Source: Mobula hypostoma
Taxonomy: Eukaryota
Length of the DNA stretch: 64,000 nt
Reading direction: 5' to 3'
NCBI RefSeq assembly: GCF_963921235.1
Contig: NC_086097.1
Span: 52,516,001 to 52,580,000 of the forward strand
Shown: positions 7,472 through 59,458 of the stretch, piece by piece
How positions within the stretch are numbered: the stretch's first letter is position 1
Layout of the letters: each line of letters begins with the position of its first letter
Notes under the pieces: model-generated
The model's input: the letters and a program-made list of their open reading frames with translations, nothing else
Database searches by the model: none
What the model was told of the DNA's origin: nothing
Program-made: the position numbers and the translations under genes

Positions 7472-9075
7472 CATAGAACATAGAATAGTACAGCACAGTA
7501 CAGGCCCTTTGGCCCACAATGTTGTGCCGATCCTCAAACTCTGCCTCCCATATAACCCCCCCCCACCTTAAATTCCTCCATATACCTGTCTAGTAGTCTC
7601 TTAAACTTCACTAGTGTATCTGCCTCCAGCACTGACTCAGGCAGTGCATTCCATGCACCAACCACTCTCCGAGTAAAAAACCTTCCTCTAATATCCCCCT
7701 TGAACTTCCCACCCCTTACCTTAAAGCCATGTCCTCTTGTATTGAGCAGTGGTGCCCTGGGGAAGAGGCGCTGGCTATCCACTCTGTCTATTCCTCTTAT
7801 TATCTTGTACACCTCTATCATGTCTCCTCTCACCCTCCTTCTCTCCAAAGAGTAAAGCCCTAGCTCCCTTAATCTCTGATCATAATGCATACTCTCTAAA
7901 CCAGGCAGCATTCTGGTAAATCTCCTCTGTACCCTCTCCAATGCTTCCACATCCTTCCTAGTGAGGCGACCAGAACTAGACACAGTACTCTGTGTGGCCT
8001 AACCAGAGTTTTATAGAGCTGCATCATTACATCATGACTCTTAAACTCTATCCCTCGACTTATGAAAGCTAACACCCCATAAGCTTTCTTAACTACGCTA
8101 TCTACCTGTGAGGCAACTTTCAGGGATCTCTGGACATGTACCCCCAGATCCCTCTGCTCCTCCACACTACCAAGTATCCTGCCATTTACTTTGCACTCTG
8201 CCTTGGAGTTTGTCCTTCCAAAGTGTACCACCTCACACTTCTCCGGGTTGAACTCCATCTGCCACTTCTCAGTCCACTTCTGCATCCTATCAATGTCTCT
8301 CTGCAATCGTTGACAATCCTCTACCTATCTACAACACCACCAACCTTTGTGTCGTCTGAAAACTTGCCAACCCACCCTTTTACCCCCACATCCAGGTTGT
8401 TAATAAAAATCACAAAAAGTAGAGGTGGGACAGCACTAGTCACAACCCTCCAATCTGACTGTACTCCCTCCACCACGACCTTCTGCCTTCCGCAGGCAAG
8501 CCAATTCTGAATCCACCTGGCCAAACTTCCCTGGATCCCATGCCTTCTGACTTTCTGAATAAGCCTACCATGTGGAACCTTGTCAAATGCCTTACTAAAA
8601 TCCATGTAGATCATATCTGCTGCACTACCCTCATCTATATGCCTGGTCACCTCCTCAAAGAACTCTATCAGGCTTGTTAGACACAATCTGCCTTTCACAA
8701 AGCCATGCTGACTGTCCCTGATCAATGTCCCTATTCATTGAGGACCTTGCTCACTTCCACAGCCTCAAGGCACATCTTCCCACCTTTATCTCTAATCGGT
8801 CCTACCTTCACTCCTGTCATCCTTTTGTTCTTCACATAATTGAAGAATGCCTTGGGGTTTTCCTTTACCCTACTCACCAAGGCCTTCTCATGCCCCTTTC
8901 TTTCTCTTCTCAGCCCCTTCTTAAGCTCCTTTCTTGCTACCCTATATTCCTCAATAGACCCATCTGATCCTTGCTTCCTAAACCTTATATATGCTGCCTT
9001 CTTCCACCTGACTAGATTTTCCAACTCACGTCACCCATTTTTTATCTTCCATTCTACCATTCTTTATCTTCCTGA
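7472..9075 (-). mobile_element. CR1 LINE 3' part with RT
   Basis: QHGFVKG..., YMDFSKAFDKVPH, KFSDDTK, LERVQRRFTRMLPG; catagaa-repeat tail at 7472. Confidence 0.9.
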
Positions 9076-10484: not shown

Positions 10485-13400
10485 CTGAGGAGCAAGTGAA
10501 AATCTTATCATAGTTAAAGGGCTAATGGAGAAAATTGGTAAATTGGTTTATTATTGTCATACGTGCAGGGGTATAGTGACAATCATGTCTTGCATACAGT
10601 CTCACAAACAGGAGAAAATCTGCAGATGCTGGAAATTCCAAGCAACAGACACAAAATGCTGGAGGAAATCATCAGGCCAGGCAGCAAAAGTCGACTGTTT
10701 ACTCTTTTCCGTAGCCTGGCCTGCTGAGTTCCCCCAACATTTTGCATACAGTCTATACAAAGCTATTGAAAACTTATAGGATGTAAACATTTTCAGCATG
10801 AAACCACAAAGCAGTCATGGCTCTGGTCCAAGTATTTCAACCGTTTAAAAATTTAGAATACAAACTAGTTGATATAGCTTTTTAACATGAATTTTCCCAT
10901 CAAAATAGAATAAACAACTTACTTTATATCTTTCTATGTGTAGAAAAAGCTAATGTTTCAGGTTAATGACTTTCCATTAGATTAAAAGCACTAACTGTTC
11001 TCCCCCCAGAGATTCTAGCTAATCCTGACAGAAGTTACCATTTCAGACTTGGAACTTTCAATTTACTTTCTCAACTCATATCCATGTCCAAGTATGACTT
11101 GTTCCCAGAATGTATAACGTAGCTGGGATATTGGACAGGACTCTCAGTAAGAAAAAGATGGCATCTAACAATAATTTTCTATCTAGATTCCAGACCTTGT
11201 CTTTGCATCCCATTTCTTTTGGGGGCTTTTTGGGAAGGACACCTGGCCAAAGCAATTGTGACCAATGATGTTCAGACCCATGGAGACAAGGGAAGGGCAA
11301 CAATATGCTCAAAACTTCTTCTCTGCCTTCTTTCCTATTGGATAATGTGAATCATTCAGTAATACTGTTACTCTGATGCCAAGAGCCTCTAATAGGGATT
11401 CAGTGAGAATTCTCAGCAAAATAATTTAGTTAGTTAACAATCCTGGAGTAAAACAGTAACTGTTGATGTGACTGACCGACTAGGTGCTGGTCAGTAACAA
11501 CTATGGGATGCACACATGGACAATAGTTGGTTAACAAGAGATTCAACTCAACAGTGCATCCCACAGGCCATTAACTGATCAAAGTGCATCATTTAAGGCC
11601 ATATATAATGAATGGAAATCTGTATGAATCATTCGGAGAGCCTTGCATTGGTGTAACTGCGTGCTAAACTCCAAGAGTGGACCTGAAGTTCAAGTTCTTC
11701 ATTTGTATTGCATAACACCACCTGCTTAAAGCGCTTTGAGCTTTGCATTTCCTCAGACCAATACACTGGCGACCAGTTTTAAATTTCAAGAAATTAATGA
11801 ACCACTGTGTGCAAACAAACTATAAGCAGCTGCAGAGTGAGCAGTGATTAGGATGCTCAGGTGTTGTCTGTCTAGACATCTTAGTTTATTGAGAATCAGC
11901 TGCTCATCTGAGACTTTAAAGGTTTCCTTCAAGTACAGATACAATCTCAAACGCTTTAGAAATCCACATGAGATGACAGCACCTCAGAATTGGTATGACT
12001 GATTATCAGACAAATCTTCTCTTCCAAGACCACATTGCTTCTAATATTTCAGTAAAAGTTAAGTCCTGTGTTTGTACAATTTTCTTCTCTTGGCTCTTGT
12101 GAAAATAACAATCTTGGCTTAGTTGTAATCCAATGAGACACCCCCAATACAAAGGCCTTACAAAATGTTGGCATGGTATTGGAAAAGAACCCCTCCATTG
12201 CAAATGTGGCCCCAGATTATGGCCAGCTGTATGAGCAGAAACATATGAAAAATGATTGTTTTAGGGAAAGGGACAACTAATGAAAACCAGGCTGATTTTT
12301 GTTTGCTGAGGCTTCATGTTAGAATTCCTCGAGTTGGCAGGGGGTCAGTTACATCGGGAATGCAGCTGTTGGCAAAATACTGGCAGACTCCAGTTTAGGC
12401 TTTCAATCACTGCCTAGGTGCTAGTGATGTACACATTTTTCTGGCAAATTTCCAATACCACAAAGAAAAATGCAAGAGCATCTGAAAGCACTTCGGCTTC
12501 ATTTGTTGAAATATTATATTATGGTATTTCAACAAATAAAGCAACCGCTGTGTGATGCTTCAAATATAGCAACACTACATACATGAAAGGATGATGATTG
12601 AAACAGTTACAGATTGGCCAAACCACAGATCCTACCTTTACACAAGATAAGCAACTCCTTAATGGATCACGTCAGGTGTTAGTAGTAATCTTATCTTCAT
12701 TGTGGATCGGCCTCAGCAAGACAACACAAATGAAAAATAAGGATGATTGATCTCTTGAGAGTAGAGCAATAGCATGTGCGATATGACGAAGCACGATTTG
12801 CTGTCAATCAAGTGGTACTAGAGCTGGGCAGTCAAAGAATCTGCCTGTTTCAATTAGGCATTCTAAGGCAAGCAAACCAACCTTATATACATCTTAGAAC
12901 TCCAACTGTCATAAGACCATAAGACAGAAAAGAATAAGACCATTCAGCCCATTGAGTCTGCTCCATCATTGCCTGATGGCTGATTTATTTTCTCTCACAG
13001 CACCTTACTCTTTATATATCTAAAATAAACTATTAGTATCTTATATTATTGGCCAATTTACCTTCATATTTCACTTTTTCTCTCTTTATTCCCTTTTTTT
13101 TAGCTGTCTTCTGTTCATTTTTTAAAGCTTCCCAATCCTCTATCTTCACACTAATTGTTGTCAAGAAAATAACCTCTCCCTCAACATCGCAAAAACAAAG
13201 GAGCTGGTTGTGGACTACAGGAAGAATGGAGACAGGCTAACCCCTATTGACATCCATGGATCTGGGGTTGAGAGGGTGAACAGCTCTAAGTTCCTCAGCA
13301 TATACATCACTGAAGATCTCATGTGGTCTGCACATATCGGCTGTGTGGTGAAAAAAAGCACAACAGCGCTCTTTACTTGAGACAGTTGAAGAAGTTTGGT

Positions 13401-16400: not shown

Positions 16401-19400
16401 GAGCAAATGGCATACAGGCTGCATATTGAGGTAACATTTGCAGCCACAGATACATCTGGTTGGGAGATGATCTCGGCCTGCTGCAAAAGTTGGCAGGGCT
16501 CTCCTTTAGCCTCTTAAAGAAAACTCTATAAAGCCTATCAATATTTTTAAGGAGCTGTAAATTCTGCAAAGAACCATTAACTTGGACAGTCATGTTTTCT
16601 CAGATCTTTTCTTTCACAACGTATTGCTCCTCTTACCCCAAAAAGGCTTTTAAACAAGGGAATATCCATTAAGCCTCCCATTATGTTGAAATAGAATCTT
16701 ATTCTTGGCAAGGATAAAGCTATTCCAGTAGTCTCAGAGGACCAGAGGCCCACAGCAAGGTCAATACTGCAAGGAGTACTACGAAATAAAACTTGCTCTA
16801 TTCATCATTTGAAATTTCAAGGTTACATGCCACAAATTTTTGCAGATGTTGGAAACAAAAGCATGTCATTTCTTTCATTGACCCATGCATGACACTCATT
16901 AGGATCCATTAAATAAGCATCTATAGCACAAAGCAGCCACAGACAAAAAAGAACATAATCTTGGACATGGAAAAACTTAATTGAAACACGATCCACCCCA
17001 ATTTATAAGACTTAGAGTAGAAATGTTATGTCGCCGTCAAAAAAATCCAAATTGCAATGTGCAATAAGCATTGCAATGTTACTGTAACACAACTTGAGGT
17101 ACCAACACACATAAAAGTTGCTGGTGAACGCAGCAGGCCAGGCAGCATCTCTAGGAAGAGGTGCAGTCGACGTTTCAGGCCGTGACCCTTCGTCAGGACT
17201 AACTGAAGGAAGAGTGAGTAAGGGATTTGAAAGTTGGAGGGGGAGGGGGAGATCCAAAATGATAGGAGAAGACAGGAGGGGGAGGGATGGAGCCAAGGGC
17301 TGGACAGGTGATTGGCAAAAGGGGATACGAGAGGATCATGGGACAGGAGGTCCGGGAAGAAAGACAAAGGGGGGGGGAACCCAGAGGATGGGCAAGGGGT
17401 ATATTCAGAGGGACAGAGGGAGAAAAAGGAGAGTGAGAGAAAGAATGTGTGTATATAAATAAGTAACAGATGCGGTATGAGGGGGAGGTGGGGCATTAGC
17501 GGAAGTTAGAGAAGTCGATGTTCATGCCATCAGGTTGGAGGCTACCCAGACGGAATATAAGGTGTTGTTCCTCCAACCTGAGTGTGGCTTCATCTTTACA
17601 GTAGAGGAGGCCGTGGATAGACATGTCAGAATGGGAATGGGATGTGGAATTAAAATGTGTGGCCACTGGGAGATTGAGGTACCAATCTTGTTTCCTATTC
17701 TTTCTTGGTAGGAGTTAATTTCACAACTAACTTAATTGACATCTGTGGGACCAAATTATTTCAGTGTGCGCCTACACATCACAAGGAACTATTTTATTCG
17801 ATATGGCATTCAAGGACCTAAAATGCAAATGTGCCTTTTTCAACGTTTGTCCAAGAATGGTCAGTTAGAATGAAATAAAACTAAAAGATGCTCAGAAAGG
17901 GTCACAGTACTGTAGAACACCAATATCATATTTATTTCACATATAGCAAAAATCTGAAGGAACTCAACAGGTCAGGTAGCATCAATGGAGGGAAATAGAC
18001 AAAGGATCTCAACTCAAAACACTGATTTTCCATCTCCAACTACAGACGCCACCTTATCTACTGAGCTCCTCCAGATTCCAGCAGTTGTAATTTCTTGCAT
18101 CTCCATCACTTCATGTACCTGTGCAAACTTTGCCATCTCCTTCATAGCCTGGTGCACATGTACAGATGTGATCATGGTCATTCACTGGGTAACACTGTGC
18201 TTTTGGATCACAGCCATGGGTTCCATCCTGACACGGATTAACTCGTACAAGCCTGGAGTTATCTGTGCAGAATATTTGAAAAAGGTAATAAAAAAAATGA
18301 ATATCATGATAAAATATATACAATTCTAAGAGACTAGCTAAATCATATTTAAAAGACATGAAAGCCCCTTCATTGGAGTCAAAACCAAGAAATGCTGGAA
18401 ACACTAATGGTCAAACAACATCTATGGAAAGACAAGCAAGAGAAAACCTGCAGATGCTGGAAATCAAAGTAATACTGTACACACAAAATGCTGGAGGAGC
18501 TCAGCAGAACAGGCAGCATCTATGGAAAAGAGTAAACAATCCTGATGAAGGGTCTCGGCCCAAAATAGTGACTGTTTACTCTTTTCCATAGATGCGCCGT
18601 GGCCTGCAGAGTTCCTCTAGCATTTTGTGTGTGTTGCTATCCAAAGGAAGAGAAACTTAACATTTCAGTGTCACTGGGACACGATGAAAACTGAAATGCG
18701 AAAGTAGCCCACGTAGAAGATGAGACAGGGCAATGGAGGGTACAAAGGTGAATTAATGTGGCAGTAAGAAGCAGTTAAAAGTTTCTGTGTTAATATTTAT
18801 AATCTGTACAATGAGATATGCCCAGCAGGCCAGACTAAACAAATGAAAGAAAGAGAAAAGGACAGAAGCGAAAAGAGACCAATTCTGAAACAAATAGAGG
18901 GTGTGAGGTTACCGAAAGTTGGGCGATTTAGTCAAGTCCTGCGGGCTGCCATGCACCACAAGACAAAATCAATGATGTTTCTAAAGCAAGTATTGGGCCA
19001 TGTTTTAAAAGAGTAGGAGGCCACACTCAGGTCGGCAACTGGATAAGGAATTAAAGTAGTTGGCGACAAACAGCTAGTGCTGACTCCTGAAGAGTGAGAG
19101 CCAGTGCCCCACAGAGTGATTGCCCAACCAGTGTTTGGCTAATCCAGAGAGGAGGAGACCACAGAATATGGTACATTAGACTGGGGGAAATGCATGTCAC
19201 CTGGAAAGACCACTTGGATTCCTAGCTGGTGGGGAGGGCTAAAAGCACGTGAGTTGCTCTTCTGCAGTGGCACGGCAAAGTGTCACATGAAGGGAAGCAA
19301 TGGATAGGGATGAAAGAGCAGACGAGGCAATTGTAAAGCAAACAATCATTTCAAAATGCCGATAGTGGAGTGCAGTGTGTGTGTATTTGGTGGTGGTTGA

Positions 19401-22400: not shown

Positions 22401-25400
22401 TCCCTAAAGGTTAACTTGCCGGTTGAGTTGGTGGTAAGGAAGGCAAATGCAATGTTAGCATTCAATTTAAGAGGACTAGAGTATAAAAGCAAGGATGTAA
22501 TGCTAAGGGTTTATAAAGCATTGGTCAGACCACACTGGAATATAATGTGCAGTTTTGGGCCCCTTATCTAAGAAAAGTGCTGGCATTGGAAAGGGTCCAG
22601 AGGAGGTGCATGAAAATGATTCCAGGAATGAAAGTGTTAATGGATGAGGAGCTCTAGGCCTGTATTCACTGGTCTTGAGAAGAATGAGGGAGATTTCATT
22701 GGAACCTATCTAATATTGAAAGGCCGAGAAAGAGTGGATGTGGAGAGGATGTTTCCTATTGTGGGGGAGTCTAAGACCAGAGGGCAGAGCCTTAGAATAG
22801 AGGGGCATCCATTTAGCACAGAGATGAGAAAAGTTTTCTTTAGCCAGAGGGTGGTGAATCTGTGGAATTGATTGCCACAGATGGCTGTGGAGGCCAAGCC
22901 ACTGGGTATATTTAAAGCGGTGGTTGATAGGTTCTTGATTTGTCATGGCATCAAAAGTAATGGGGAGAAGGCAGGAGGATGGGGTTGAAAGGGATAATAA
23001 ATCAGCATGGTGGAATAGCAGAGCAGATTCGATGGGCCAAATGACCCAGTTCTGCTCCTATGTCTTATGGTCTTAAATTTTGATATGCCTACACCTTAAC
23101 TTTGAGACAGCTTGTGTATAGGGACACTTTGGTTCCTTTGAAAATCAGCTCTTTTCAAATTCTCACTTTTCAAATGAGGAACTTCTAAAAAAATTTTTTC
23201 CACCACATGACCTCATTTTTAATCCTTTGTTCTATCTGCCATACATTGTGCATTCAATTTACGGATCCATATCTCCCCAAAGCCTCTCAGAGTCTACAAT
23301 TCTATCTAGCTTCATATCAGAAAAATGGATATTACGTATCTCTGCACCAAATCATTGAGAAAAGATTGCAAATGACTAGGGCTCTGACGCCATTCTTCTA
23401 GCACACCATTCATAACAGTTTCATTGCCCGAAAAAGGACACATGCAGTTCTACCTTGTTTGTTCAGAAATCCTAAACTCATACCATTATATTATACTCAA
23501 TACCATCTATATTTTTGGTTTAGAGATACCACACCGTAACAGGCCCTTCCGGGCCAATGACCCCATGCTGCCCAATGACACCCACATAACCAATTGACCT
23601 ACTAGCCCATAATCCATTGCAATATGGGAGGAAAGCAGAGCACCTGGAGGAAACCCACACAGTCATGGGGAGAATGTACAAACTCATTACAGACACCGGC
23701 GGGAATAGATCCCGGGTCACTAACACTGTAATGGTGTTACACTAACTACTACGCTACCATGCTGCCCTGTACTTCAATTGCATTTGAAAATCTTTTGTGC
23801 CACTTCATTGCCATTTAGCTAGCTTCAGCTCCAACTACAACTTCAAAAACTGTCCATTTTCCTTTCAAAAAAGTGCCCTCTCCTCTTACCACTTTCTTCA
23901 AAATGGATTCCAATATTTTTCCTGCTTTTGATGTCAGACTACCTGGTCTACGCTTCTCACATTTTCTTCCACCCTTCTTAATTAGTGGGAGCACCTTCTC
24001 ATCTATTCTGAAATGTATGGAATGTTAGATTAAAATCTTGGATGCACTTTCTCCATAGACACATTTTTCTAAAATCCTGAGGGCAAAGGTTATTGATTCC
24101 CCAGGGAATTAACTTGGAGTCTTCCACCATCTGAGAGTTTTCCTTCATAAAATGTCAAACAACATCTGTTTACCATTTTCTTATCACCAATGCAATTTCT
24201 TCCCCTTTATGCCAAAAGAGAGTAATATTAAAAGCTATTGACCCTTCTACAACCTATCTCCCTGTAATCTGTAATTTGTTCTCACATTCTACTTTTCTTA
24301 AGGAAGCCTTGGTTCTGCTCTGCTGAATTCAGAAGTTTTCCATTCTTCAAGCTGATTAGTTATTTTGGCCAACATATATCTTCTGATCTAATACATTACT
24401 GAAGTTTTATTGATAGCTACAGTTGTGCCCCTTGGTTTTTACCTAAAAAGGATATTTATAAATCTAGTTTCCTCACAGCCTTGCAGTTTGCATTTTCAAA
24501 TTTACAACCCTGGTTTCAGATTGAAAGCTCACTCAGTTCTGCCTTTTACGTCTCTTCCTTGCTAGCTGACCCAGATTTAAAACTCACATTTTCAATTTCT
24601 ACGTTGTGAAATTCTACAGAATTAACTCCTCAACCACCTCCAAGTCTACTTATTTTCAATTTTTTTGAGCAAACACCACCTACCAACAAAAAAAATATTG
24701 TTTCAATTTTTGTTCAGCAAGTCCCATAAATATCTTGTACATATCATTTTAAAAGTACTAGATAAATATTGGGCATTTCTATTAAGATGCCTGATTAGCT
24801 CATTACCACTATGCTTTTTCATAAGTGGATTGATACAGATTTCAAATTTAAACAAGTATTTGTACAATAAACAGCCATCAGAAAAAAATAATAATCCGGG
24901 TGTGTTATAGGAGAAGAATATTCAAGACAGAGGTAAAAATGGCCATACATAGAAGTCATGATAATAAGCAACTATAATACTCATTTAAATCCTATGACCA
25001 TTAAAAAACAATTTGAATTTAGAAGGAAATGTTCATTTGTAGGGTGCATTATATTTAGTGATAACAATTAACACACTTAAATTAGGCAAGATCTGGATTT
25101 TTGGATTATGTTCTGTTTGGGCCTGATCATCAAGACCAGGTGAAAGTGGTTAGGAGGTAGGCACCCACTAGATGTCTTCTAGAAGTTTTATTCTTTAGCA
25201 TCTTCCATACTCCATTCCTGTTTGAGATAGCACAGTTCCTATTGAAACTGATAGGTTCAGGGAAAGTTTGATTAAATAGTATAAATAAGATTGAGCAATG
25301 CTCCCCCCTTGTTCAATCCCTTCCCACTTATGTTCGTGACACTTCTCACGCTCTGAATTTTTTCAATGATTTTAAGTTCCCTGGCCCCCACGGCCTTATT

Positions 25401-28400
25401 TTCACCATGGATGTCCAGTCCCTATATACCTCCATCCCCCACCAGGAAGGTCTCAAATCTCCACTTCTTTTTGGATTCCAGATCTAACCAGTTCCCCTCT
25501 ACCACCACTACTCTCCTCCGTCAAGCGGAATTAGTCCTTACTCTTAATAATTTCTCCTTTGGCTCCTCCCACTTCCTCCAAACTAAAGGTGTAGCCATGG
25601 GCACCCGTATGGGTCCCAGCTATGCCTGCCTTTTTGTTGGCTTTGTGGAACAGTCCATGTTCCAAGCCTATACTGGTATCTGTCCCCCACTTTTCCTTCG
25701 CTACATTGACGACTGAATTGGCGCTGCTTCCTGCACGCATGCTGAGCTCATTGACTTCACTAACTTTGCCTCCAACTTTCACCCTGCCCTCAAATTTACC
25801 TGGTCCACTTCCGAAACTTCCCTTCCCTTTCTTGATCTTTCTGTCTCTATCTCTGGAGACAGCTTATCTACTGATGTCTACTATAAGCCTAAGGACTCTC
25901 ACAGCTACCTGGACTATTCCTCTTCCCACCCTGTCTCTTGCAAAAATGCCATCCCTTCTCACAATTCCTCCGTCTCCGCCGCATCTGCTCTCAGGATGAG
26001 GCTTTTCATTCCAGGACTAAGGAGATGTCATCCTTTTTAAAAGAAAGGGGCTTCCCTTCCTCCACCATCAACTCCGCTCTCAAATGCATCTCTCTCATTT
26101 CACGCACATCTGCTCTCACTCCATCCTCCCACCACCCCACTGGGTATAGAGTTCCCCTTGTCCTCAGCTACCACCCCACCAACCTCCGGGTCCAACATAT
26201 AATTCTCTGTAACTTCCGCCACTTTCAATGGGATCCCACCACCAAGTACATCTTTCCCTCCCCCTCTCTTTCTGCTTTCTGCAGGGATCACTCCCTAAGC
26301 GACTCCCTTGTCCATTCGTCCCCCCCATCCCTTCCCCCCGATCTCCCTCCCGGCACTTCCTTGTAAGCAGAACAAGTGCTACACATGCCCTTACACTTCC
26401 TCCCTCACCACCATTCAGGGCCCCAGACAGTCCTTCCAGGTGAGGCAACACTTCACCTGTGAGTCGGCTAGTGTGATATACTGTGTCCAATGCTCCCGAT
26501 GCAGCCTTCTATATATTGGTGAGACCCAACGCAGACCGTTTCGTTGAACACCTATGCTCTGTTCGCCAGAGAAAGCAGGATCTCCCAGTGGCTACACATT
26601 TTAATTCCACGTCCTATTCCCATTCTGATATGTCAATCCACAGCCTCCTCTACTGTCAAGATGAAGCCACACTCAGGTTTGAGGAACAACACCTTATATT
26701 CCAGCTGGGTAGGCTCCAACCTGATGGCATGAACATTGATTTCTCTAACTTCTGTTAATACCCCTCCTCCCCTTCTTACCCCATCCCTTATTTATTTTTA
26801 TTTCCCCACCTTTTTTTCTCTCTCTTTCCCTCTCACAATCACTCTTTGCCTGCTCTCCATCTTCCTCTGGTGCTCCCCTCCCCCTTTCTTTCTCCCTAGG
26901 CCTCCTGTCCCATGATCCTTCTCCAACTCTGTATCCCTTTTGCCAATCACCTGTCCAGCTCTTGGCTCCATCCCTCCCCCTCCTGTCTTCTCCTCTCATT
27001 TTGGATCTCCCCCTCCCCCTTTCAAATCTCTTACTATCTCTTCTTTCAGTTAGTCCTGACGAAGGGTCTCGGCCCGAAACGTCGACTGTACCTCTTCCTA
27101 GAGATGCTGCCTGGCCTGCTGTGTTCACCAGCATTTTGTGTGTGTTGCTTGAATTTCCAGCATCTGTAGATTTTCTCATGTTTGCATGTTGGAACAACTC
27201 AGTGGGTCAGATATCATCTGTGGTGGGAAATGGACAGTAAATGTTTTGGGCCAGGACCCTTCAGTAAGACTGGGGATATGGTGTGTATCCTCAAGAAGGG
27301 TCTCGGCCTGAAAAGTCAACTGTTTACTCTTTTCCATAGACGCTGCCTGACCTGCTGAATCCCTTCAGCATTGTGTGTGTGTTGCATATATAGTATAATG
27401 TTGGCATTTGCAATGGCTTTTGATCGGTAATATCACCGATCTCAGCTGAAAAAGAAAATCATTCATTGTGATGCACTTGCCTATTAGAAAGAAATCTTAA
27501 TTGGTAGAATTTGCAGCAGCAAAAGGCATAGCAGTTATAAATAACTATTAATAAACTGTTTCAATTACGAATAAACCAAGTTTGTATCAATATTCAAAGT
27601 TTGCTTCCATTCTCAATTCAACACTACAAAAGAAAATGTGAATTTTACGCTATCAAGCTTGTGATCTGCTTCACCCAGCAGACACATCTCATGCATTTAA
27701 TTTGAACTGTTGATTTTCAGCCTGGGGCCATCTCACTTGCTTGTTCAGAGTGAAAAGAGCTTTGTTAAAATTTGACATATTGAGTCACTTTCTCACCCCT
27801 TCCAGAGACCTTGGTGTAAGGTCATTATTCAAATTCTCTCCTTGCCCACTGCCTTTATTGAATGTCTGTTTATTGTTTTTACACATGAACAAGTACTTCC
27901 TTTGCATGCTGAAACAATCAGAAGCTATGGGTCAGACAGCTTGCAATTACTCTTTAGTTTCTGTTACTGCTATGAAAGAAAATGTACATTGGATGATCAA
28001 GTAATCAAAGCTTCTGCCTCAACAAGTGCAAACAAGTGTTGTTTAAGATTCATTTTAACCTTCTGACTTCTTAAAGTGAAGAAAAATGGACTGGAATTAT
28101 TAAAGAATAGCCATTCTGAATCCATGTGAATTGCAATGCATTATTCTTTCTGAGAGACAATAAGAGAACAACACAAAAACAGATTCCAGCCTGCATATCA
28201 CCTACCTCTGACGGGTCCAATCTGGCTGATCATTCCATATCTGACCACCTGCTCACTCTGATTATATAGAACCAATATACGCTCTGCATTAAGTTGCTGG
28301 GCTGCTGGAATGGTTTTTGGTGCATGCTCACAGTCATAATAGGTAATGTTCTGCTTCAATTGGTAACGGAGTCTCTGTGTCTCACCATTCGTAGATTCAA

Positions 28401-37429: not shown

Positions 37430-39653
37430 ATATTAATTAACAAAAAAGCTAAACGTCACAAAATGAAATCTGCCACAGAATACAATGAGACGCATAATTT
37501 TGCTGAAAATTCTATGTCAATCTATTCAGTAACTGGTTATGATGTTTTAGTTCACTTTCCTTTGCTTTTAATTCAGCCTTCAGATTATGAACTGCCTGTT
37601 GATGTTGTTCTTTAATTTGTTCAATGGCCATTTCTGCTTCTAAACTCGTGTTTGGCGGATTACATTCCCCGGGATCGAAAGATTGATCACACTCTCCTAC
37701 TTTAATGGTTCTCTGCTTCTTAGTAATTCGTTACATTCCTAACAAAATGCATTACCCATTGCAATAAGAATGTAAATAACATTATATTGGGAACAAAAGA
37801 AGGAAGGGCACGAATATATATATATATAAAAATTCATGTCAGGCCAGCGGATGCCAACTAGCCGTGTTGGTAGCCTCGGTGCCAGTTTGAGGCAAGGTTG
37901 CCAAGCCTAGTCGTGGTAAACACTAAATGAGAAAATTGAAGAAAATGCTGGCCAAATTCTGCTATGAGAAGGAAGATCCGCCAAATTCGAGGGGCACCTG
38001 GGCGACTATTCCGCGCAAGAACCTGCACAATTCCTGCAGTCGATGGGGAAATGTGGCAAAATGTTGGCAGTTATGTGTGCTGGAATAAGACTGTGTGAAT
38101 CCGACTCAAAAGAGGAATTACTTTTCATTTAATGAGTCCAAAAGTGCAGCCGATAAATTAAACTGGCATTGAAGTGGCGGGAAGCATCGCACGTTCCCTT
38201 CTCAGTTGCGACGAAAACAGCACAAAAAAAGGATAAATTTGCTACCCAGTCTCCAGCTGGTTATATTGCAAGTTTTGGTGTACGTGGCCAGTTGCTTCAT
38301 CTTTTAGCTGATGCGCGGAATGTGTAGACATGTTTTTCAGAGGAAAAGACATAGTGGAAACGGATGGTGGTGATGAGGCCCAGCCTGCACAAACGGATAC
38401 TATATTGGACCAGAAAGAAGTTATTCGATTAATTGAAATGGGTTCAGCGATATACAAAATATGCGCATTTTTTTGTTTATCAATGATTACTTGACTTTTC
38501 ATTCTGTCCTTCCCTGCCGTGGGTTCATTACTCTTTCAGGTCCGCTGGAGTTCCACCCCACCGGGGCCATTTCAGGTCCACACGAGGGCACCCTAGCTGG
38601 TCCGCACCCAGTTTGCCACCGGGGATCAGCCTTCCGCTCTGCCTTCTCAGTCTGCTCGTGCCTCACCCAATCTGCTGCGCTGGCTCGACACCTTGCATCT
38701 ATTCACACTGGCCGGTAAACTTGGCCCCCATTCTCCTTCCTTTGCACTCATGCCCTTTACTATTGCGCCTTCCTAAATTATTTGCCTCTTCCATTGGCAC
38801 ACCCTGCACGGTTAGGTAGGCCACCACGCTTTCAGATCCGCTCCAGCTCTAACCTGACGTATCCATCTCAGCTCTGCTCCGCGTAAAATCAAGTGAATAA
38901 AACTATTCAATGTGATGTTAGATGTCAAAAACTTTGTCCCCCCCCCCTTACACGATCTATAGAGTATTGTTCAGCTAAATGTGGATAAGTTAATACAAGG
39001 TATATCCGAAAAACAGTACACACAAGGTGCGGTAATATTACATCTAAGGGAGTGAAATCATTATCGAAGATGCACAATGTTTAGGTCATCACCTTGGTAA
39101 TTAAGGACTACTGATAGCCATAAAGTCCAAAGAAATATATCTTCATCCTTCAGAGGTGCCCTGGCAGCCACGTGACCACGACATATAGCTCAAACGAAAT
39201 CCACGTGCATCGTACAGAAATAATAATTCCTCTTGGCTTAAAGTAAATGCAAATACGTTGCATGTAGTCAAAGAAAAAGTGGAAGCAGCTCTGAAGTCAA
39301 GAAAAACTAACAGGATTAAAGTTTGCAAAGCAACGCACAAATGCAGGAAGAACTCAGCATGTCAGGCAACGTCTCCGGAGGGAAATGGACAGTGGAAGAT
39401 TTGGGGTTCAAGACCCTTCATTAGGACGGGGTTGCAGAGCCAAGGCAGAGAAGACATCGTCATAGACCTCGAAATAGCCAGTGCAATGCACATTGGTCAA
39501 TGTAAGAAAGTGGTTAACAAAATCTTCATAGTCAAAAATATCTATGTATCAAATAGATACATATCATGTCTTGTAGTACAACAAAGCATACCATCAAGGA
39601 ATTGAAAAAAAGAATATCTTACCAGGACGTTTACCGGAAGTTAGTCTCTGATA

Positions 39654-39789
39654 CTAGTCCTGACGAAGGGTCTCGGCCTGAAACGTCGACTGTACCTCTT
39701 CCTAGAGATGCTGCCTGGCCTGCTGCGTTCACCAGCAACTTTGATATGTGTTGCTTGAATTTCCAGCATCCGCAGAATTCCTGTTGTTT
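39654..39789 (+). mobile_element. 136-bp Penelope terminus insertion carrying an intact hammerhead motif
   Basis: 10-bp TSD GTCTCTGATA at 39644-39653 and 39790-39799. Confidence 0.85.
39656..39691 (+). ncRNA. Minimal type I hammerhead ribozyme motif
   Basis: AGUC-CUGACGA-A-GGGUCUCGGCCU-GAAA-CGUC-GACU. Confidence 0.7.
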
Positions 39790-40197
39790 GTCTCTGATAA
39801 TAATACCCTGTTTCATTCATATATTTTTAATTTCTTTGTGAGACAATATATTATTAACCATTTGCTTATTTTGCCATATTATTCAATGTCAAATTGAGCA
39901 ACAGTGAGTTCAATTAAAATTGTTCAATGAGTGCTGAGGAAAAAAGTATCACATGGTACTGAAGACACAAGTATCACAAGAGCGTTCAACTTTAACAATC
40001 GGCTATCAATTAACAGACGTTTTGCTAAACTGCCAAACAATGCCACATTTCACAACAAATTATGCTCCTGCCGAGTTACTAATTCACAGAACTTGACTTA
40101 ATTCAGCCAAATCTAGAAGTGAAACACAAACACGTCAAAGAAAAAAACAGAATCATTGTATCTGATAGGAATTTGTGATTTAACATCACCCATCACC

Positions 40198-40759: not shown

Positions 40760-43140
40760 CAAATCTGACAATGTAGTGAAGGTAAGAAGTAAAAAAAATC
40801 TCGTGAGGAATGTGAGAGGAAATTATGTAAGCACGTCAATTCCAGCAAAAGTATGCAAGAGTGCATCGAATATATGAGTGTATTCCTGAAATACTATGTG
40901 GGGAAATGGCAGTCTTATTGACTGGTATTAAAAAGGGACACCTTCAAGTCAGCAATCAAGTATGATCAAAATGAAATACTTTTCTTTGAAATAATCAGAA
41001 TCAGGTTTAACATCACTGGCACATGTCGTAAAATGTGCGGTTTCGCGACAGTAAACTGTGATTCAAGAATACTCTAAATTACAATGATATATATACTTAA
41101 TTATGCAGTGCGAATAGACAACAAAGATAGTGAGGAATGTTCTCAAAGGTGGTTTATTGTCCACTCAGAACTCTGATGGCGGAGTGGAAGAAGCTTTTTC
41201 TAAAACGCGCAGTTTTAATGTGTGTTTTAGACTCCTGTACCTCCTCCCTGATGGCAGCAATGAGAAGAGGGCAATGGCGGTTCTTAATTATGGATGCCGC
41301 CTATTTGAGGCATCGCCTTTTGAAGATATCCCGATGCTGGGGGTGATAATGTATATGAAAGAAGTGCAAGGCCCGCAGAGTTCCTCTTGCATTTTGTGTG
41401 CGTTGCTTGGATTTCCGTCATCTGTAGTTTTCCTCGTCTTTACGACAGACCATTTACCGGACACAGCTCTGGAGTTAGCATAATGTAAAAATCTGGATCG
41501 TTTGTTCTCCAAAAGGATGATGTGTGCTGGTATAGGTTGTGTGAACCGCGTCATCGATACGTGAAATGTTTCTTGGTGATCCGTAATATACCTGACATGA
41601 AACGCACTTAGAAATACGAACTCGCGATATGATTATGCTTACTTTCATTACCTAAAGCAAATTAAGTCGTGGTTGAACCATTTGTCAGATGGGAACAATT
41701 ACCAGATTCTCTGTGAGATACTGTGTTTCCGTTTACATTTTTAAAAAGCTGACAATTGAGCAAGGTCGTGAGTAAAACATCTTCTAAATAGGTAAGATTA
41801 GTCAACAGCTGGCTATTCCTCGACATGTAGAAAAACACCCAAAGCAGCACTGATGGCGATGATTGAAGGAGGCCATTCCGTCCATCGTTCCTGTGCGAGC
41901 TCTTTGAAAGTGCTAATTAAACTCAGCTCCGTCCCCAAAGCCCTGCGGGGAGAAACATCACGATTAAGTAGAGCGTGGAAAGATTTAAGGGATGCCCCTC
42001 TTTCGAATTGAGAACGGCGATCGGTGTCGGCATTTTGCTTTGAAATTGCTGCAATTTAGTTTTAAATACTGCCTCGCCCCAGGATGCACTGTAGACGAAC
42101 AGCCTTTTTAGAAGTAAGCGAATATTACAAAGCGCCCTGCGGTGAGCGCTTTTAGTTTTGAGCTTGTCACTAACAGATAAAAATTAGGAACCTTCCCACC
42201 ACCGTGCATATTTTCTTTGCCAATTAGAGTATCCTAATTTGAATACGATCTTCAAAAAGATTTCGCCTTTGCATAGCCAGGGGATTAAAAATAATTGCGG
42301 CAAAGTCTAAATTAACTCTACTAATGGAAGAAATCTAAATTAACAAATGTATTTCAACTTCCTTTTGTAAATGGGAGGAGCAAGTGGGTTCAATAAACCA
42401 CAGCCCTAAGATTGTTTCATAGTATTGCTGCATTTCGTGTGGAGTTACATTTTCCTTTTGGTTATCTAACGCAATATATGTCAGATGAATTGCATCACAC
42501 ATGAACACGGTAGGAAAGAATTTTAGAACGCCTTTGAGATGGCTTTATTAGAACAGCTTGTAGTCGAGCTCACCAGACATAAAGGAACTACAGAAGATGG
42601 GAGGGGAGCTGGCCAAAATTGATTGGAAGGGGACACTAGCAGGGATGACGACAGAGTGCAATGGCTAGAGTTTTTGGGAGCAATTTGGAAGAGCAGTATA
42701 GATTCAGCCCAAAAAAGTGCTCTAAAGTTTTGTGGCGACCAATCAACAAGGAGGCAGTGCATAAAATGAGCTACCTGTTCAAATGGGCCCACAAAAAATA
42801 TTTAAAAGTCAGAGATTCTCTAAGTTTTGCAGCAACCAATCAGCCATGAGGGATTCATTAGAAAGAGAGAATACAAATAACACAACTGCAAGTGGAGCGG
42901 CTATTCCTTTGAATGTGTCAATCTTTAGAGTAGCCTTAGCTCATCAGGCTTAGGGGAGATCAGGCTTGGGGAGGTAAAATATCTACTGACTTTCTCTTTT
43001 TGTTCTTATTGATTCCTCAATCATTAGGGCATAGTAGTGTAGTGACAATGGTTCCAGGGTGCCGTGTTCTGTACTGTGTGTGGGGTCTGAGAAGTCTGGG
43101 AGACCTCCAGTCTCCCAGATAAACACATCTGCACCAGGTG

Positions 43141-44543: not shown

Positions 44544-45467
44544 TGTCATAAGGAGGTGGCTGGGAACGGACCCAAGTGCAAGACACAGACACTGAAGTAC
44601 TAGGGACAGGACTAGGATACAGGGTGAGGGCTAGGACAGGGACACAAAAACCGGGAACCCGGAACAGGACAGGACAAGAGAGCTAGGAGCCCGGGCTTGG
44701 TGTCCGAGCCAGAGACTGGACAAGGACCCAGAACCTGGGTCTTGCCTCTGGCTCGGCCCCTAGAACTAGGCAAGGACGTGACTTGGCTGGCAGGCAGGAC
44801 GAGGCTTGGGGCAAGGCTTGGTGTCTTGAAGCTCCTCCTGGGCAGGGCGCGGATCTCCACCCGATGGAGGCAAGGGACAGGAAGGGACAGAACCCACCAC
44901 AGGGTAACGGCAATCTGGCCTGACTTACCCAACGGAGGCAAGGGACAGGAAGGGACAGAACCTTCCGCAGAGTAAGGGTAATCTGGCCTGACTTACCCGA
45001 CGGAGGCAAGGGACAGGAAGGGACAGAACCAACTGCAGGGTAACGGCAATTTGGCCTGTCTTAACCGGCGGAGGCAAGGGACAGGAAGGGACCTAGATAC
45101 GGGGTGGCTCCAAGACAAGACTTCAGGCGAGGCGAGGGTTATCGGCCAGACAAAACAAGGCTTCAGGCAATGCAAGGCGAGACAAGAACTTTGGGTGGGA
45201 CGAGGCAAGAGTTACCCGCAAGTCAAGACAAGGCTTCAGGCAAGGAAACAGAAGACAGGGGAAGGGATACAAGGAGTAAGGACAAGAACAATCCAGCAGC
45301 CACTCCCTGGTCTCTGGAGGTATTTATGCAGCCAGCCCCAACGAGAATCAGCTGCCTCAATTAGTGCTCAACAGGAACAGAAACAGGGTAGACAGGAAAA
45401 CCCGGAGTAAGGGTCGATGGACCGGACCGTGAACTGGAATGCGGACTTCACGGACCGGACCATGACA
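44544..45467 (-). mobile_element. Solo LTR (Gypsy-like) with about 3.4 copies of a 68-bp repeat
   Basis: TGTCAT...ATGACA ends; 5-bp TSD GTTGG; CATAAATA on minus at 45321-45328; strand inferred. Confidence 0.82.
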
Positions 45468-46039: not shown

Positions 46040-47444
46040 TGTCATCGGCGGGGGGGCACTGGTAGCGGATCCAAATGCAAGACAGACTCTGAAGTACAAG
46101 GATCTGGGCGGGACTAGAGTTAGGGACAGGAATGGACACAGACTAGAAGTTGGGACAGGAACACAGACTTGGGCTAGGACTTTGCCTAGGAAAGCGGGAC
46201 AAGGACAAGGAAATGGGAACTAGGAGCCTGGGCTTGGACTCCGAGCCAGAGACTGGACAAGGACCCAGAACCTGGGTCTTGACTCAGGCTCGGACCCCAG
46301 AACTAGGTGAGGCTTGGGTTCTTCGAGGCTCTTGGACGTAGCCAGGCTCGGCTCTTGGACTCGACTCGGTTAGGCCCTTGGGTACAGAGCCAGGACTCTT
46401 TCTTAGAGCGCAGGGCCAGGACCCTTCCTAGGACGTAGGGCTGGGTTGCTTTCGCAGGGCCGGGCCCCTTCCTAGGATGCTGGGCCGGGATGCTTAGTAG
46501 GATGCAGGGCCAGTGTGACTGCCAAGGTAAACTGCCGAGGAAACTGTCAGGGATTCATATGGGGAGGGGAAGAGAATAGTCCAGCCTTAGGGTAACGGCA
46601 AGGACAGCCTGACTTACCCAACGGAGGCAAGGACAGGAAAGTACAGATCCCACCGTAGGGTAACAGCAAAGACAGCCTGACTTACCCAATGGAGGCGAGG
46701 ACGGGAAGAGAACAGTCCAGCCTCAGGGTAATGGCAAAGTTGGCCTGACTTACCCAACGGAGGCAAGGACAGGAAAGTACAGATCCCACCGTAGGGTAAC
46801 AGCAAAGACAGCCTGACTTACCCAATGGAGGCGAGGATGGGAAGAGAACAGTCCAGCCTCAGGGTAATGGCAAAGACAGCCTGACTTACCCCATGGAGGC
46901 AAGGACAGGAAAAGACAGATCCCACCGTAGGGTAACAGCAAAGACAGCCTGACTTACCCAATGGAGGTGAGGAGGGGAAGGGACAGATCCAACTGCAGGG
47001 TAACAGCAAGGACAGCCTGACTTACCCCACAGAGGCTAGGGAGCTCAATCCAGGGTGGCTCCAAGTCTCAGGGCAGCCAGCAACCTTTGCTGGCTAGGGA
47101 AACAGCCAAAACCATATCTAGCTTGGAGTGGCAGACAGCCACTCAGCTGGCCCCAGGAATGGCCAAATCCATACCACGATGACTGCTCTAACTAGAGATA
47201 ACAAGGCTCCATGAAGCAGTGGTCCTCCAACCAAGCCTAGAGATCACAAATGGCTGCTCTAGCCTTCCACTGGCAGGTTACTCCAAGGGGACACTGACGA
47301 GACAAACCAGCACCCACGCTTGAACCCAGGGCCACTTATATTCCCAGCCTCAAGACGAGAATCAGGTACCTATGATTAAGCCCAACTGAAACAAGGGACA
47401 GCCAGAAGTCCTGGAGTCCAGAGTCTATGGACCGGACCATGACA
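46040..47444 (-). mobile_element. Related solo LTR with an expanded 68-bp array
   Basis: TGTCAT...ATGACA ends; TSD TTGTG/TCGTG (one mismatch at a CpG); shared segments with 44544-45467. Confidence 0.82.
46560..47035. repeat. 68-bp tandem array with alternating A/B units (136-bp higher-order period)
   Basis: gacttaccc recurs at 46611, 46679, 46747, 46815, 46883, 46951, 47019. Confidence 0.92.
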
Positions 47445-49911: not shown

Positions 49912-50050
49912 ACACAAGAGATTCTGCAGATGCTGGAAATCCAGAGCATCAGATTCCTGTAGAAGGGTCTTGCCCAAAATGTCCCCTGTTTATTCTTCTC
50001 AGTATGTGCTACCTGACCTACTAAGTTCCTCTAGCATTTTGTGTGTTTTC
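49912..50050. mobile_element. Penelope-terminus-derived short element
   Basis: ctgcagatgctggaaatcc...cctgtagaagggtcttgccc...tagcattttgtgtg. Confidence 0.65.
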
Positions 50051-50066
50051 TCAACGTTATCATTTA

Positions 50067-50542
50067 CGAGGGATGATTGATAAGTTCGTGGCTTAAGGTA
50101 GAAGGCGTCAATTTTAGGAAACCTAGCACATTTATTTTTCAACATTGTCCCCTCCTACATTTACACACTTAGTCCAGCGGTCATGGAGCATATGGATCTT
50201 GGACCTCCAGAAAGTGTCCACAGCAGGGGTGATTGATAAGTTCGTGGCCTAAGGTAGAAGGAGATGAGTTATTAACTTCAAACCTTCTGCATAATCACTC
50301 AAAGAGTTGACCTGCATGTGCATGTAACGAGAGCTGTATAACTCATCTCCTTCTACCCTAGGCCACAAACTTATCAATCACTCATCTGTGGATACTTTCT
50401 GGAGGTCCAAGATCCGTATGCTCCATGACCACTGGACTAGGTGTGTAAATGTAGGAGGGGACTATGTTGAAAAATAAATGTGCTAGGTTTTCTGAAATTG
50501 ACGCCTTCTACCTTAAGCCACGAACTTATCAATCACCCCTCG
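50067..50542. mobile_element. Mariner-type MITE with about 200-bp inverted arms and internally duplicated TIR
   Basis: TA-CGAGGG...CCCTCG-TA; TIR repeated internally at about 50226-50262 and 50347-50381. Confidence 0.88.
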
Positions 50543-50808
50543 TACTTCACGCACAGTGTTTTTGATTTACAGATAACTCATTTACGTTCACCTTCTATCC
50601 ACCATACCCTAAAGCCTAGGACATTGTGTCAGGCAGATGCAGTTTGTTCATGGAACTCTCCTGAGCCCAAACAGCCATTCCACAGCCACAGAGGGGCATA
50701 TCATAAGCTGAACTGGCTGGACAAGAGCACTGACACAGTCCTGGATACCATTGTTCAAGAGAGATTTTAACTTTCTACATAATGATTCGGACTCCCATCC
50801 TGTCACAG

Positions 50809-50870
50809 ACATTTAACAAACTCTATCCCATCCTGTCCTTTAACAGGATGGGATAGAGTTTGTTAAATGT
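50809..50870. repeat. Perfect 28-bp inverted repeat with 6-nt loop
   Basis: acatttaacaaactctatcccatcctgt-ccttta-acaggatgggatagagtttgttaaatgt. Confidence 0.95.
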
Positions 50871-51643
50871 GTCTACAAAAGTTTCCTTAATGAATATTTA
50901 GAGGTCCCAGCTGGAGAGAGAGTAAGGTACTGGATCTCTGTTTAGGGAACAAGACAGGGCAGGTGACAGTGGTATGTGTAAGACAACACTTTTGATCTAG
51001 TGGTCGTAATTCCATTAGTTTCAAGGAAATTATGGAGAAGGATAGGACAGTGGGTTAAGGTTTTACATTTGAGAATGGCCATCAGAAAGAATCTAGCAAA
51101 GCAAAACACACAAAGTGCTGGAGGAACTCAGCAGGCCAGGCAGCATCTGTGCATCTGTATTTCCCTCGGAGTTCTATATAGACACATGGTCTATAGAACT
51201 GAGGCAAAACAGCAGTGAGCTCTTGGGCCATATACTGTTTAGAGGAGAGGAGGTGCTTGCTGTCTTGAAGAAAATTAGGGTGGGTAAGTCCTCAGAGCCT
51301 GACAAGGTGTCCCCTCAGACCTTGTGGAAGGCTAGTGTAGAAAATGAAGGGGCTCTGGCAAGATACTTAAAATGTCCTTAAACACAGTTGAGATGCCAGA
51401 GGACGAGAGGATAACTAATGTTGTTCCTATGTTCAAGAAAGGTCCTAAGAATAAACCAGGAAATTATAGGCTGGCGAGGCTGATGTCAGCAGTGGGTAAA
51501 TTATTGGAAGGTATTCTAAAACCAGAAATCAGAAAAGAACAATGCGGCTTTGTGGAAAACACTGGAACCAGAAATGCAATTTTCATGCTACAGATGATCT
51601 GTGAACAAGCCATCCAGGTACAAAAAGACATCTACCTATGTTT

Positions 51644-53059
51644 TCACCCTGCCCTCAAGTTTACCTGGTCCATTTCTGACACCTCCCTCCCCTTTCTAGA
51701 TCTTTCTGTCTCTATCTCTGGAGACAGCTTATCTACTGATGTCTACTATAAGCCTACTGACTCTCATAGCTATCTGGACTATTCCTCTTCTCACCCCGTC
51801 TCTTGCAAAAATACCATCCCCTTCTCGCAATTCCTCTGTCTCCGCCGCATCTGCTGTCAGGATGAGGCTTTTCATTGCAGGACAAGGGAAATGTCCTCCT
51901 TTTTTAAAGAAAGGTGTTTCCCTTCCTCCACTATCAAATCTGCTCTCAAATGCATCTCCCCCATTTCACGTACATCTGCTCTCACTCCATCCTCCTGCCA
52001 CCCCACTAGGAATAGGGTTTCCCTGGTCCTCACCTACCACCCCACCAGCCTCCGGGTCCAACATATTATTCTCCATAACTTCCGCCACCTCCAACGGGAT
52101 CCCACCACAAAGAACATCTTTCCCTCCCCCATCTCTCTGCTTTCCGCAGAGATCACTCCCTACGCGACTCCCTTGTCCATTCGTCCCCCCCATCCCTCCC
52201 CAATGATCTCCCTCCTGGCACTTATCCTTGTAAGCAGAACAGGTGCTACACACACCCTTACACTTCCTCCCTTACCACCATTCAGGGCCCCAGACAGTCC
52301 TTCCAGGTGAGGCGACACTTCACCTGTGAGTCGGCTGGGGTGACATACTGCGTCCGGTGCTCCCGATGTGGCCTTCTATATATTGGCGAGACCCGACGCA
52401 GACTGGGAGATCATTTTGCTGAACACCTACGCTCTGTCCGCCAGAGAAAGCAGGATCTCCCAGTGGTCACACATTTTAATTCCACATCCCATTCCCATTC
52501 TGACAAGTCTATCCACGGCCTCCTCTACTGTAAAGATGAAGCAACACTCAGGTTGGAGGAACAACACCTTATATTCCGTCTGGGTAGCCTCCAACCTGAT
52601 GGCATGAACATTGACTTCTCAAACTTCCGTTAATACCCCACCTCCCCCTCGTACCCCATCTGTTATTTATATACACACTTTTTTTCTCTTTCTCTCCTTT
52701 TTCTCCCTCTGTCCCTCTGACTATACCCCTTGCCCATCCTCTGGGTTTTCCCCCCCTCCCCCTTTTCCTTCTCCCTGGGCCTCCTGTCCCATGGTCCTCT
52801 CATATCCCTTTTGCCAATCAGCTGTCCAGCTCTTGGCTCCATCCCTCCCCCTCCTGTCTTCTCCTATCATTTTGGATCTCCCCCTCCCCCTCCCACTTTC
52901 AAATCTCTTACTAACTCTTCCTTCAGTTAGTCCTGACGAAGGGTCTCGGCCTGAAATGTCGACTGTACCTCTTCCTAGAGATGCTGCCTGGCCTGCTGCA
53001 TTCACCAGCAACTTTGATGTGTGTTGCTTGAATTTCCAGCATCTGCAGAATTCCTCGTG
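51644..53059 (+). mobile_element. Penelope-like element inserted in the RTE
   Basis: [11 protein letters not shown]...LPFLDL, VTYCVRCSRCGLLYIGETRRRLGDHFAEH; 13-bp TSD TCTACCTATGTTT at 51631-51643 and 53060-53072. Confidence 0.92.
52929..52964 (+). ncRNA. Hammerhead motif, variant GAAAUGUC
   Basis: Same architecture as 27052-27087 with CpG-type substitutions. Confidence 0.6.
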
Positions 53060-57259: not shown

Positions 57260-57516
57260 CCCGTTACAACCAAACATTAGCATATGCTTTATGTACTGTA
57301 TATTTCTGTTAATAGTTGAAATGAAACGTGCTTTTCTGAAAGAGGTCCTGGAACTTTGACAGAATCTTGCCATATTTATTGTGGACACAAAGTATTTATT
57401 GCATTACTTATTAGTAATAACATTTTGGAGCATCTTTATAAATAATTATCATTGAAGCAATTACCCCAAATGGTAGATTAGAAATATACAAGAAATAATG
57501 GTGGAGAGTCCATGCT

Positions 57517-59093: not shown

Positions 59094-59422
59094 AATTTTT
59101 GATGAAAAGGTAGATAGGTGGGTTAGTAAGTTTGCAGGTGACACAGTGATTGGTGGAGTTGTGGACAGTGAGGAAGGTTATTATAGGATCAGCAGGATAT
59201 AGGTAAGTTACAGATATGGTCAGAGACATGACAGATGGAGTTTAATCCAGGCAAGTGTGAGCTTTTGGACTTTTGAAGATCAAACATAAGGGGAAAGTAT
59301 ACAGTTGTACCATATACATAATTTTTTATTCCTTAGCCATACTTTAATAACTAACTTTATTTATATATGTCAAAGTTGCTGGTGAACGCAGCAGGCCAGG
59401 CAGCATCTGTAGGAAGAGGCGC

Positions 59423-59458
59423 AGTCGACGTTTCAGGCCGAGACCCTTCGTCAGGACT
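59423..59458 (-). ncRNA. Minimal type I hammerhead ribozyme motif
   Basis: Minus strand AGUC-CUGACGA-A-GGGUCUCGGCCU-GAAA-CGUC-GACU. Confidence 0.7.

Follow-up and report, generated by a model that had tools for sequence, protein, structure and literature searches.

Six copies of a short hammerhead-like motif lie in the window, that is, in the whole 64-kb stretch of DNA that was analysed, and they raise the question of what this motif is and what part it plays in the spread of the element that carries it. Motifs of this sort are well known from Penelope-like elements, and the finding as first noted is ordinary. What the genome provides is evidence, from large numbers of copies, that uncut RNA was the source of the insertions and that this RNA had a boundary at the front edge of the ribozyme, in agreement with in vitro work on the Anolis element. 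As a whole, we consider it probable that the motif is the pseudo-LTR hammerhead of what is likely a Neptune Penelope element, that it is predicted to cut only as a dimer or with protein, and that its copies are decaying and derive from uncut RNA.

We start with the motif itself. All six 36-nt minimal type I hammerheads of the preliminary description are indeed present, with 0–3 substitutions relative to the copy at 27052; a sequence check places them at 17165–17200 (−), 27052–27087 (+), 39656–39691 (+), 52929–52964 (+), 59423–59458 (−) and 60078–60113 (+), the last two being the arms of an inverted pair. The CUGANGA and GAAA cores, the 4-bp stems I and II, the GUC triplet and C17 at 27083 are as had been claimed, and a type I descriptor asking for the cores, a NUH triplet and type I topology is passed by all six copies, including that at 27052. 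In the latter, stem I (27052–55/27084–87) is followed by CUGACGA, an extra A, stem II (27064–67/27072–75, with a 4-nt loop and a G10.1–C11.1 pair), GAAA, CG and UC, and the cut is predicted from this sequence to fall after C27083. The ACGU palindrome that had been described in place of stem III is intact in four of the six copies, including 27052, but is changed at 52929 and 60078. The extra A between positions 9 and 10.1, found in all six copies, had been regarded as a deviation from the canonical core; it is instead a conserved trait according to PMC4209133, and it is typical of the Penelope class, since 19 of 22 distinct motifs from distant loci (see below) have an extra nucleotide. The real departure from consensus is a G10.1–U11.1 pair, which occurs in five of the six copies, with G10.1–C11.1 at 27052.

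The motif differs from canonical type I Rfam hammerheads in helix III, which has no loop and forms no stable or capped helix. An Rfam scan of the window returned 11 matches at E ≤ 10, none of them to a hammerhead family; matches to MIR408 and snoR125 at 59.7 kb were rejected, as they are the hammerhead inverted pair and lie below gathering scores. With the first base of stem I counted as position 0, here and throughout, the predicted monomer fold of the 27052 motif pairs the core GACG with CGUC to form a 12-bp rod with its base at position 0, a fold that models predict to be the inactive form. The folding energy is ordinary (z −0.96). Cleavage is predicted only for the dimer or in the presence of the element protein. 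In terms of class, the motif is a real, published kind of predicted self-cutting RNA.

The assignment to the terminus (pseudo-LTR) of a Penelope-like element, as first read, is supported by the surrounding sequence, and the motif is almost certainly the minimal hammerhead of this family. In a full unit it stands about 170 nt before the likely ORF start and also about 295 nt after the stop. Eight of 20 long-copy loci hold two direct motifs, 3507–3523 nt apart, around the RT/GIY-YIG frame, and in such tandem loci the likely start ATG lies about 170 nt after the first motif. Between the hammerhead and this likely start (~+170), L136 and other tandem loci have two or three ATGs; ATGs lie at +52 and +88 from the motif, the first opening a short frame. 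The preliminary description had the motif always following the GIY-YIG ORF, and GIY-YIG remnants do precede it at 17165, 27052 and 52929, but three of the six copies lack them. The open frame of a long copy comprises 1092 residues with an RT, a zinc-finger-like CX4CXXC linker and, following the linker, a C-terminal GIY-YIG domain (Pfam RVT_1, E 5e-5; GIY-YIG, E 0.003; both scores below the curated cut-offs). A search among 8000 candidates yielded 409 relatives; the closest named protein is from a bamboo shark (71% identity), which makes a shark or ray the probable host; no solved structure matched the ORF. The element is likely a Neptune-clade Penelope-like retrotransposon, the clade label being taken from one motif, that of the linker.

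The copies in the window range from long and truncated to solo and inverted. The motif at 27052 belongs to a 5′-truncated, frameshifted copy (25302–27185, +; 87.5% identical to a full-length copy), which contains the C-terminal half of the RT, the zinc-finger linker, GIY-YIG, a spacer, the hammerhead and a long 3′ end; the frame stops at 26758, and the spacer from there to the hammerhead is 293 nt long and pyrimidine-rich. This copy is intronic in, and antisense to, a nidogen-like gene, whose exons (10342–33434, −) encode NIDO, EGF, G2F, EGF and calcium-binding EGF domains. Because the intron is on the opposite strand, the copy does not lie in the sense of the nidogen-like pre-mRNA, and cutting of the host transcript by it is ruled out. 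The shorter copy at 17103–17674 (−) is sense to the nidogen-like intron and contains the last GIY-YIG codons, the spacer, a hammerhead with U11.1, a short 3′ end and a target duplication. A solo copy of 136 nt (39655–39790, +), consisting of the hammerhead and a long 3′ end with a 10-nt target duplication, begins one base before stem I. The copy at 51642–53060 (+) is 5′-truncated and comprises the RT thumb, linker, GIY-YIG (stop at 52633), spacer, hammerhead and a target duplication, while 59367–60211 is a head-to-head inverted pair of pseudo-LTR ends without an ORF, one with a short and one with a long 3′ end. An older, decayed fold-back pair of the terminus with broken cores (27189–27385) adjoins the 27052 copy.

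Twelve further, older and more decayed profile matches bring the window to 18 in all. Decayed terminus matches are found at 367–537, 10641–10744, 17939–18075, 18478–18638 and 27189–27385 and also at 39329–39428, 41365–41407 and 49955–50047; several of them are fold-back pairs, two of which flank the EGF exon at 18114–18410. Other repeats in the window include LINE-type RT fragments and an L1-like ORF1 piece (7896–8734, 53226–53765, 56745–57263 and 63217–63762), with the Penelope copy at 51642–53060 apparently inserted into one LINE-type fragment; a MITE-like inverted repeat of 480 nt (50065–50544, arms 87% identical); a 62-nt hairpin (50809–50870); and two tandem arrays with a period of about 68 nt (44859–45092 and 46560–47042).

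How widely has this family spread? It had been suggested to have seeded many ribozyme motifs, and this is borne out, with tens of thousands genome-wide. An exact 34-mer with two degenerate places has 45,139 matches in the 3.48-Gb genome (control 0), and a relaxed core pattern has 79,456 (control 0); one-base insertion variants of the core pattern number 103. In a sample of 804 kb, made up of 16 unselected blocks and the window, the type I descriptor gave 36 matches, 35 of them from the Penelope hammerhead family (Markov controls 0, 1 and 0). A profile search of the same sample gave 163 matches, from which several hundred thousand relics may be extrapolated genome-wide, a rough figure that counts partial matches and the selected window. 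For comparison, about 4,000 motifs in coelacanth and about 9,000 in Xenopus are given in PMC4209133, obtained by another search method.

The distant relatives show what has been maintained in the motif. Among 80 distant Penelope-related loci, the descriptor finds 27 matches in 23 loci, 24 of them on the ORF strand, against 0–1 matches in eight control runs. The 22 distinct motifs are mostly palindromic (20), have the extra nucleotide (19) and carry G10.1–C11.1 (18), traits not demanded by the descriptor, and palindromes of 4, 6 or 8 nt occur in differing sequences across L296–L375. Stem covariation, put forward earlier as a check, is found in an alignment of 14 of these motifs with two window copies: in the 16 rows, the core is invariant and eight of nine pairs change on both sides, a statistic that is partly circular because the descriptor selecting the stems demands pairing. 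Within this genome, on the other hand, the subfamilies are too alike for compensatory pairs, and from one subfamily to another the core shows no better preservation than bases +48 to +99. A lack of excess conservation of the core over the flanks, which the preliminary description would have counted against a ribozyme, is what we see for the inserted copies, but constraint is evident across distant families.

Substitution rates within the inserted copies lead to the same picture. With CpG and subfamily-variable columns masked and, for the old copies, clusters 4, 5 and 7 (25 of 139 old copies) left out, core and flank rates are alike in young copies (34/2324 vs 52/3622, p = 1.0) and in old ones (64/711 vs 138/1499, p = 0.94). 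The young-copy p of 1.0 refers to a flank of +72 to +85; a flank of +72 to +95 gave p = 0.008 because it took in copy ends. Core, stems and palindrome are all kept in 23 of 39 unselected young copies and in one of 84 old copies. The inserted copies are neutrally decaying passengers, mostly fossils. Subfamily clustering was performed on the 423 of 559 profile matches that were long enough. Young and old clusters differ within the motif mainly at N7 and 11.1, and outside it in the spacer (+37 to +47) and the upstream bases; the hammerhead consensus is the majority base at all core positions in clusters 1–3, 5, 6, 8 and 9. In old cluster 6, core A6 is C in 46% of 35 copies, which suggests a core-altered master that still spread.

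Position 11.1 deserves separate attention. Genome-wide, U11.1 occurs in 58,821 of the 79,456 relaxed matches (74%) and C11.1 in the other 20,635. The carriers of C11.1 are more diverged (5.5% vs 2.8%), and all 38 motifs of the 20 long-copy loci have U11.1; the youngest masters thus carry the G–U pair. A G10.1–U11.1 pair would be expected to weaken hammerhead catalysis; our literature search found no paper on its effect on hammerheads. The natural C11.1 and U11.1 variants offer a means to ask whether ribozyme strength trades off against spread.

The ends of the copies bear most directly on the RNA from which they were made. In 243 copies anchored downstream of the motif, the 3′ ends form two groups near +97 and +133, that is, two classes about 35 nt apart. 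The 5′ ends gather at the front of the motif: 65 of the 243 fall at −3 to +9, compared with three at +30 to +34 (p ~1e-23 for the edge), and their density at −3 to +9 is 5.0 per base, compared with 0.6 upstream and 1.1 inside, with a peak at +1 and a spread across 13 nt rather than a single base. In 42 unselected copies, nine 5′ ends lie in the first interval and one in the second. Genome-wide patterns that require foreign bases before an intact stretch find 1,957 starts at 0/+1, 756 at −5 to −2 (four places), and 96 at the cut site against 133 at an internal control (+21/+22), ratios that are approximate because CpG content and the constraints on the flanks are not the same in the four junction patterns. 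Target duplications of at least 8 nt accompany 59 of 71 inverted pairs and stand beside the end of 16 of 27 solo edge copies. Furthermore, after approximate de-duplication, in 70 of the 71 inverted arm pairs one arm has the short and the other the long 3′ end. As the 5′ ends pile up at the front of the motif and not at the cut site, the inserted RNA was probably uncut and probably started at the ribozyme. That the template was uncut is very probable in our estimation; that the RNA begins at a transcription start at or just before stem I has about an even chance of being correct. The sequence at this edge (27030–27053, +) contains, at the front of stem I, a branch-point-like word, a pyrimidine tract and two AG dinucleotides, and also resembles an initiator motif. 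A branch-point-like word, a pyrimidine tract and AG, together similar to a 3′ splice site, also occur directly ahead of stem I at 52905–52930 and equivalent places, in both younger and older subfamilies.

These data can be accommodated in a single scheme. The element RNA would start at or just before stem I, probably at a transcription start, and the element protein would prime at two internal sites (near +97 and near +133), with one priming event per nicked strand. The resulting cDNAs would run off the 5′ end of the RNA and leave solo or fold-back stumps. Priming so near the RNA 5′ end would yield stumps and fold-backs of 90–140 nt, nearly all with the motif, and the motif would owe its abundance to this. 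Long truncated copies such as 25302–27185, on the other hand, would result when a read-through RNA is primed at its downstream repeat. If cleavage takes place at all, it would cost the RNA its first 32 nt, and it seems to lie off the insertion path. A more extended proposal, which we offer tentatively and would not be surprised to see fail, is that the hammerhead forms the first 36 nt of a capped RNA, so that cutting decapitates the mRNA, that the two RT starts produce the stumps, and that the youngest subfamilies spread after the ribozyme had weakened. If this is true, the hammerhead would be a brake on the element, since the youngest and most successful subfamilies carry G10.1–U11.1, and copy ends would by themselves be enough to locate where both the RNA and its reverse transcription start in a Penelope element.

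Other explanations have to be weighed for the pile-up at the front edge. It could reflect a barrier: the RT might be halted by a bound protein, the newly made cDNA of the 36-nt rod might snap back on itself, or the fold-backs might arise by self-priming at junction palindromes. The predicted 12-bp rod with its base at position 0 would be suited to this, a few inverted junctions do fall on internal complementary words of the motif (e.g. +7/+32 and +27/+31), and self-priming of this kind, possibly on an antisense template, is proposed in PMC3846280. An RT moving along sense RNA would, however, run into the structure from the 3′ side (+35), a place without enrichment of ends, and snap-back leaves unexplained both the solo edge copies with target duplications (16 of 27) and the two different 3′ ends in 70 of 71 pairs; we regard a barrier as unlikely. 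Alternatively, the edge could be the 3′ splice site of a pseudo-LTR intron, with splicing remodelling stem I and the ends arising from spliced or splicing-cleaved RNA. Such an intron is favoured by the sequence ahead of stem I, which in young as well as old subfamilies has a branch-like word, a pyrimidine tract and AG, and by the intron of Drosophila virilis Penelope, whose end is mapped to helix I in PMC4209133. The commonest first base (+1), on the other hand, falls within the AG; inspection by eye of 100 listed of the 1,957 and 100 listed of the 756 edge-starting copies revealed no shared word ahead of them that could be a first exon; and no GT..AG joint to the edge is present among the joints listed (15 of 338 and 15 of 36), which come from contigs of uncertain RNA status. 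This explanation seems to us improbable, and a start of the RNA at stem I is preferred.

A different question is whether the motif cuts in the course of transposition or has ceased to cut at all. In the cycle modelled in PMC4209133, the unit is cut out, circularised and copied; here two motifs 3.5 kb apart would release the unit RNA, and many copies would be active and cut host transcripts. Direct tandem pairs do exist, the core is conserved across distant families, and over half of the unselected young copies (23/39) keep core, stems and palindrome. Starts are not in excess at the cut site (96 vs 133 in the control), however, and this weakens the model only, because a circle would leave no end there. 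The copies also decay neutrally, most are solo or inverted and therefore without a same-strand partner, the 38 long-copy motifs all have U11.1 and not the conserved C11.1, and low in vitro activity is reported for the minimal class in PMC4209133; overall, we give such a cycle a small chance. The opposite possibility, that the motif is no longer a ribozyme in this lineage and persists as a promoter or as a binding site for protein, would be in keeping with the similar preservation of the motif and of bases +48 to +99 from one subfamily to another, with the fixation of G10.1–U11.1 in the youngest copies and with the A6-to-C change in 46% of the 35 copies of one old cluster. An ACGT about 28 nt after the putative start also resembles the RGACGTGY element quoted for D. 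virilis. Against this, the hammerhead consensus remains the majority at all core positions in clusters 1–3, 5, 6, 8 and 9, and distant families vary palindrome and stems yet keep the pairing, as would be expected of a structured RNA but not of a DNA motif. Loss of catalysis is thus doubtful, and the preferred reading remains a hammerhead that cuts, if at all, outside the insertion path.

Much of this has been published: the class itself with its extra nucleotide and palindrome, cleavage as a dimer, which the review PMC6765202 covers, and the architecture of the insertions. The copy number, the fixed G10.1–U11.1, the edge pile-up and the shark and ray cases were not found in the literature searched, and the supplements of PMC4209133 and PMC11167929 may contain motifs from cartilaginous fish or data on copy ends. 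According to PMC8557442, it is still unclear what role Penelope hammerheads play.

Among known systems, the closest class is the minimal hammerhead of metazoan Penelope-like pseudo-LTRs, including those of fish Xena, Poseidon and Neptune elements (Cervera and De la Peña 2014, PMC4209133, in its accessible part, to which the following comparison refers). Shared with it are the type I topology, a helix I of 4–5 bp, the lack of helix III, palindromic 15.2–16.2, the nucleotide between 9 and 10.1, the location in both pseudo-LTRs, and an arrangement in mostly solo copies, with inverted pairs and a few tandems spaced by about 3 kb. The present family differs in its number (79,456 relaxed matches vs ~4,000 in coelacanth and 9,000 in Xenopus, by differing search methods), its low sequence diversity, its helix II of only 4 bp and G10.1–U11.1 in 74%, where that text describes G10.1–C11.1 as highly conserved; cartilaginous fish are not named there among the hosts. 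Non-LTR retrozymes (bioRxiv 10.64898/2026.07.22.740005) likewise have type I hammerheads derived from Penelope pseudo-LTRs and are reported in one cartilaginous fish, but the window copies are solo, inverted or ORF-linked and not head-to-tail arrays of short units. In D. virilis Penelope, the pseudo-LTR repeat contains an internal promoter (Schostak et al. 2008, PMC2377424). An internal pseudo-LTR promoter and an acceptor-like site at helix I would be common to both elements; transcription there starts upstream of a 75-nt intron, whereas copy ends here point to an RNA end at stem I.

Concerning the protein, a zinc-finger-like CX2-5CxxC linker marks the Neptune and Nematis elements (Craig et al. 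2021, PMC8557442). Like these EN+ elements, ours has a single ORF with RT, zinc-finger-like linker and C-terminal GIY-YIG, partial tandems, an inverted 5′ copy, a one-sided tail of 30–40 bp and a pseudo-LTR hammerhead; it differs in its clear target duplications of 10–15 nt, and the linker is common to both clades. Finally, the Anolis carolinensis Poseidon element PAc (Frangieh et al. 2024, PMC11167929) has been studied mechanistically. Its reverse transcription begins at two internal sites, which set the tail; nicking and extension take place on both strands, mainly with uncut RNA as the template, and the hammerhead cuts only with protein, RNA-seq showing no ends at the cut site. PAc belongs to another clade (the zinc-finger linker is found here) and its ORF starts inside the hammerhead, in contrast to about 170 nt after it in our element; a pile-up of 5′ ends at the ribozyme edge is not reported in the accessible part of that paper. 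The two elements share two 3′ ends one tail length apart, the lack of ends at the cut site and an uncut template, which here is probable, and the copy-end data presented here fit the PAc scheme.
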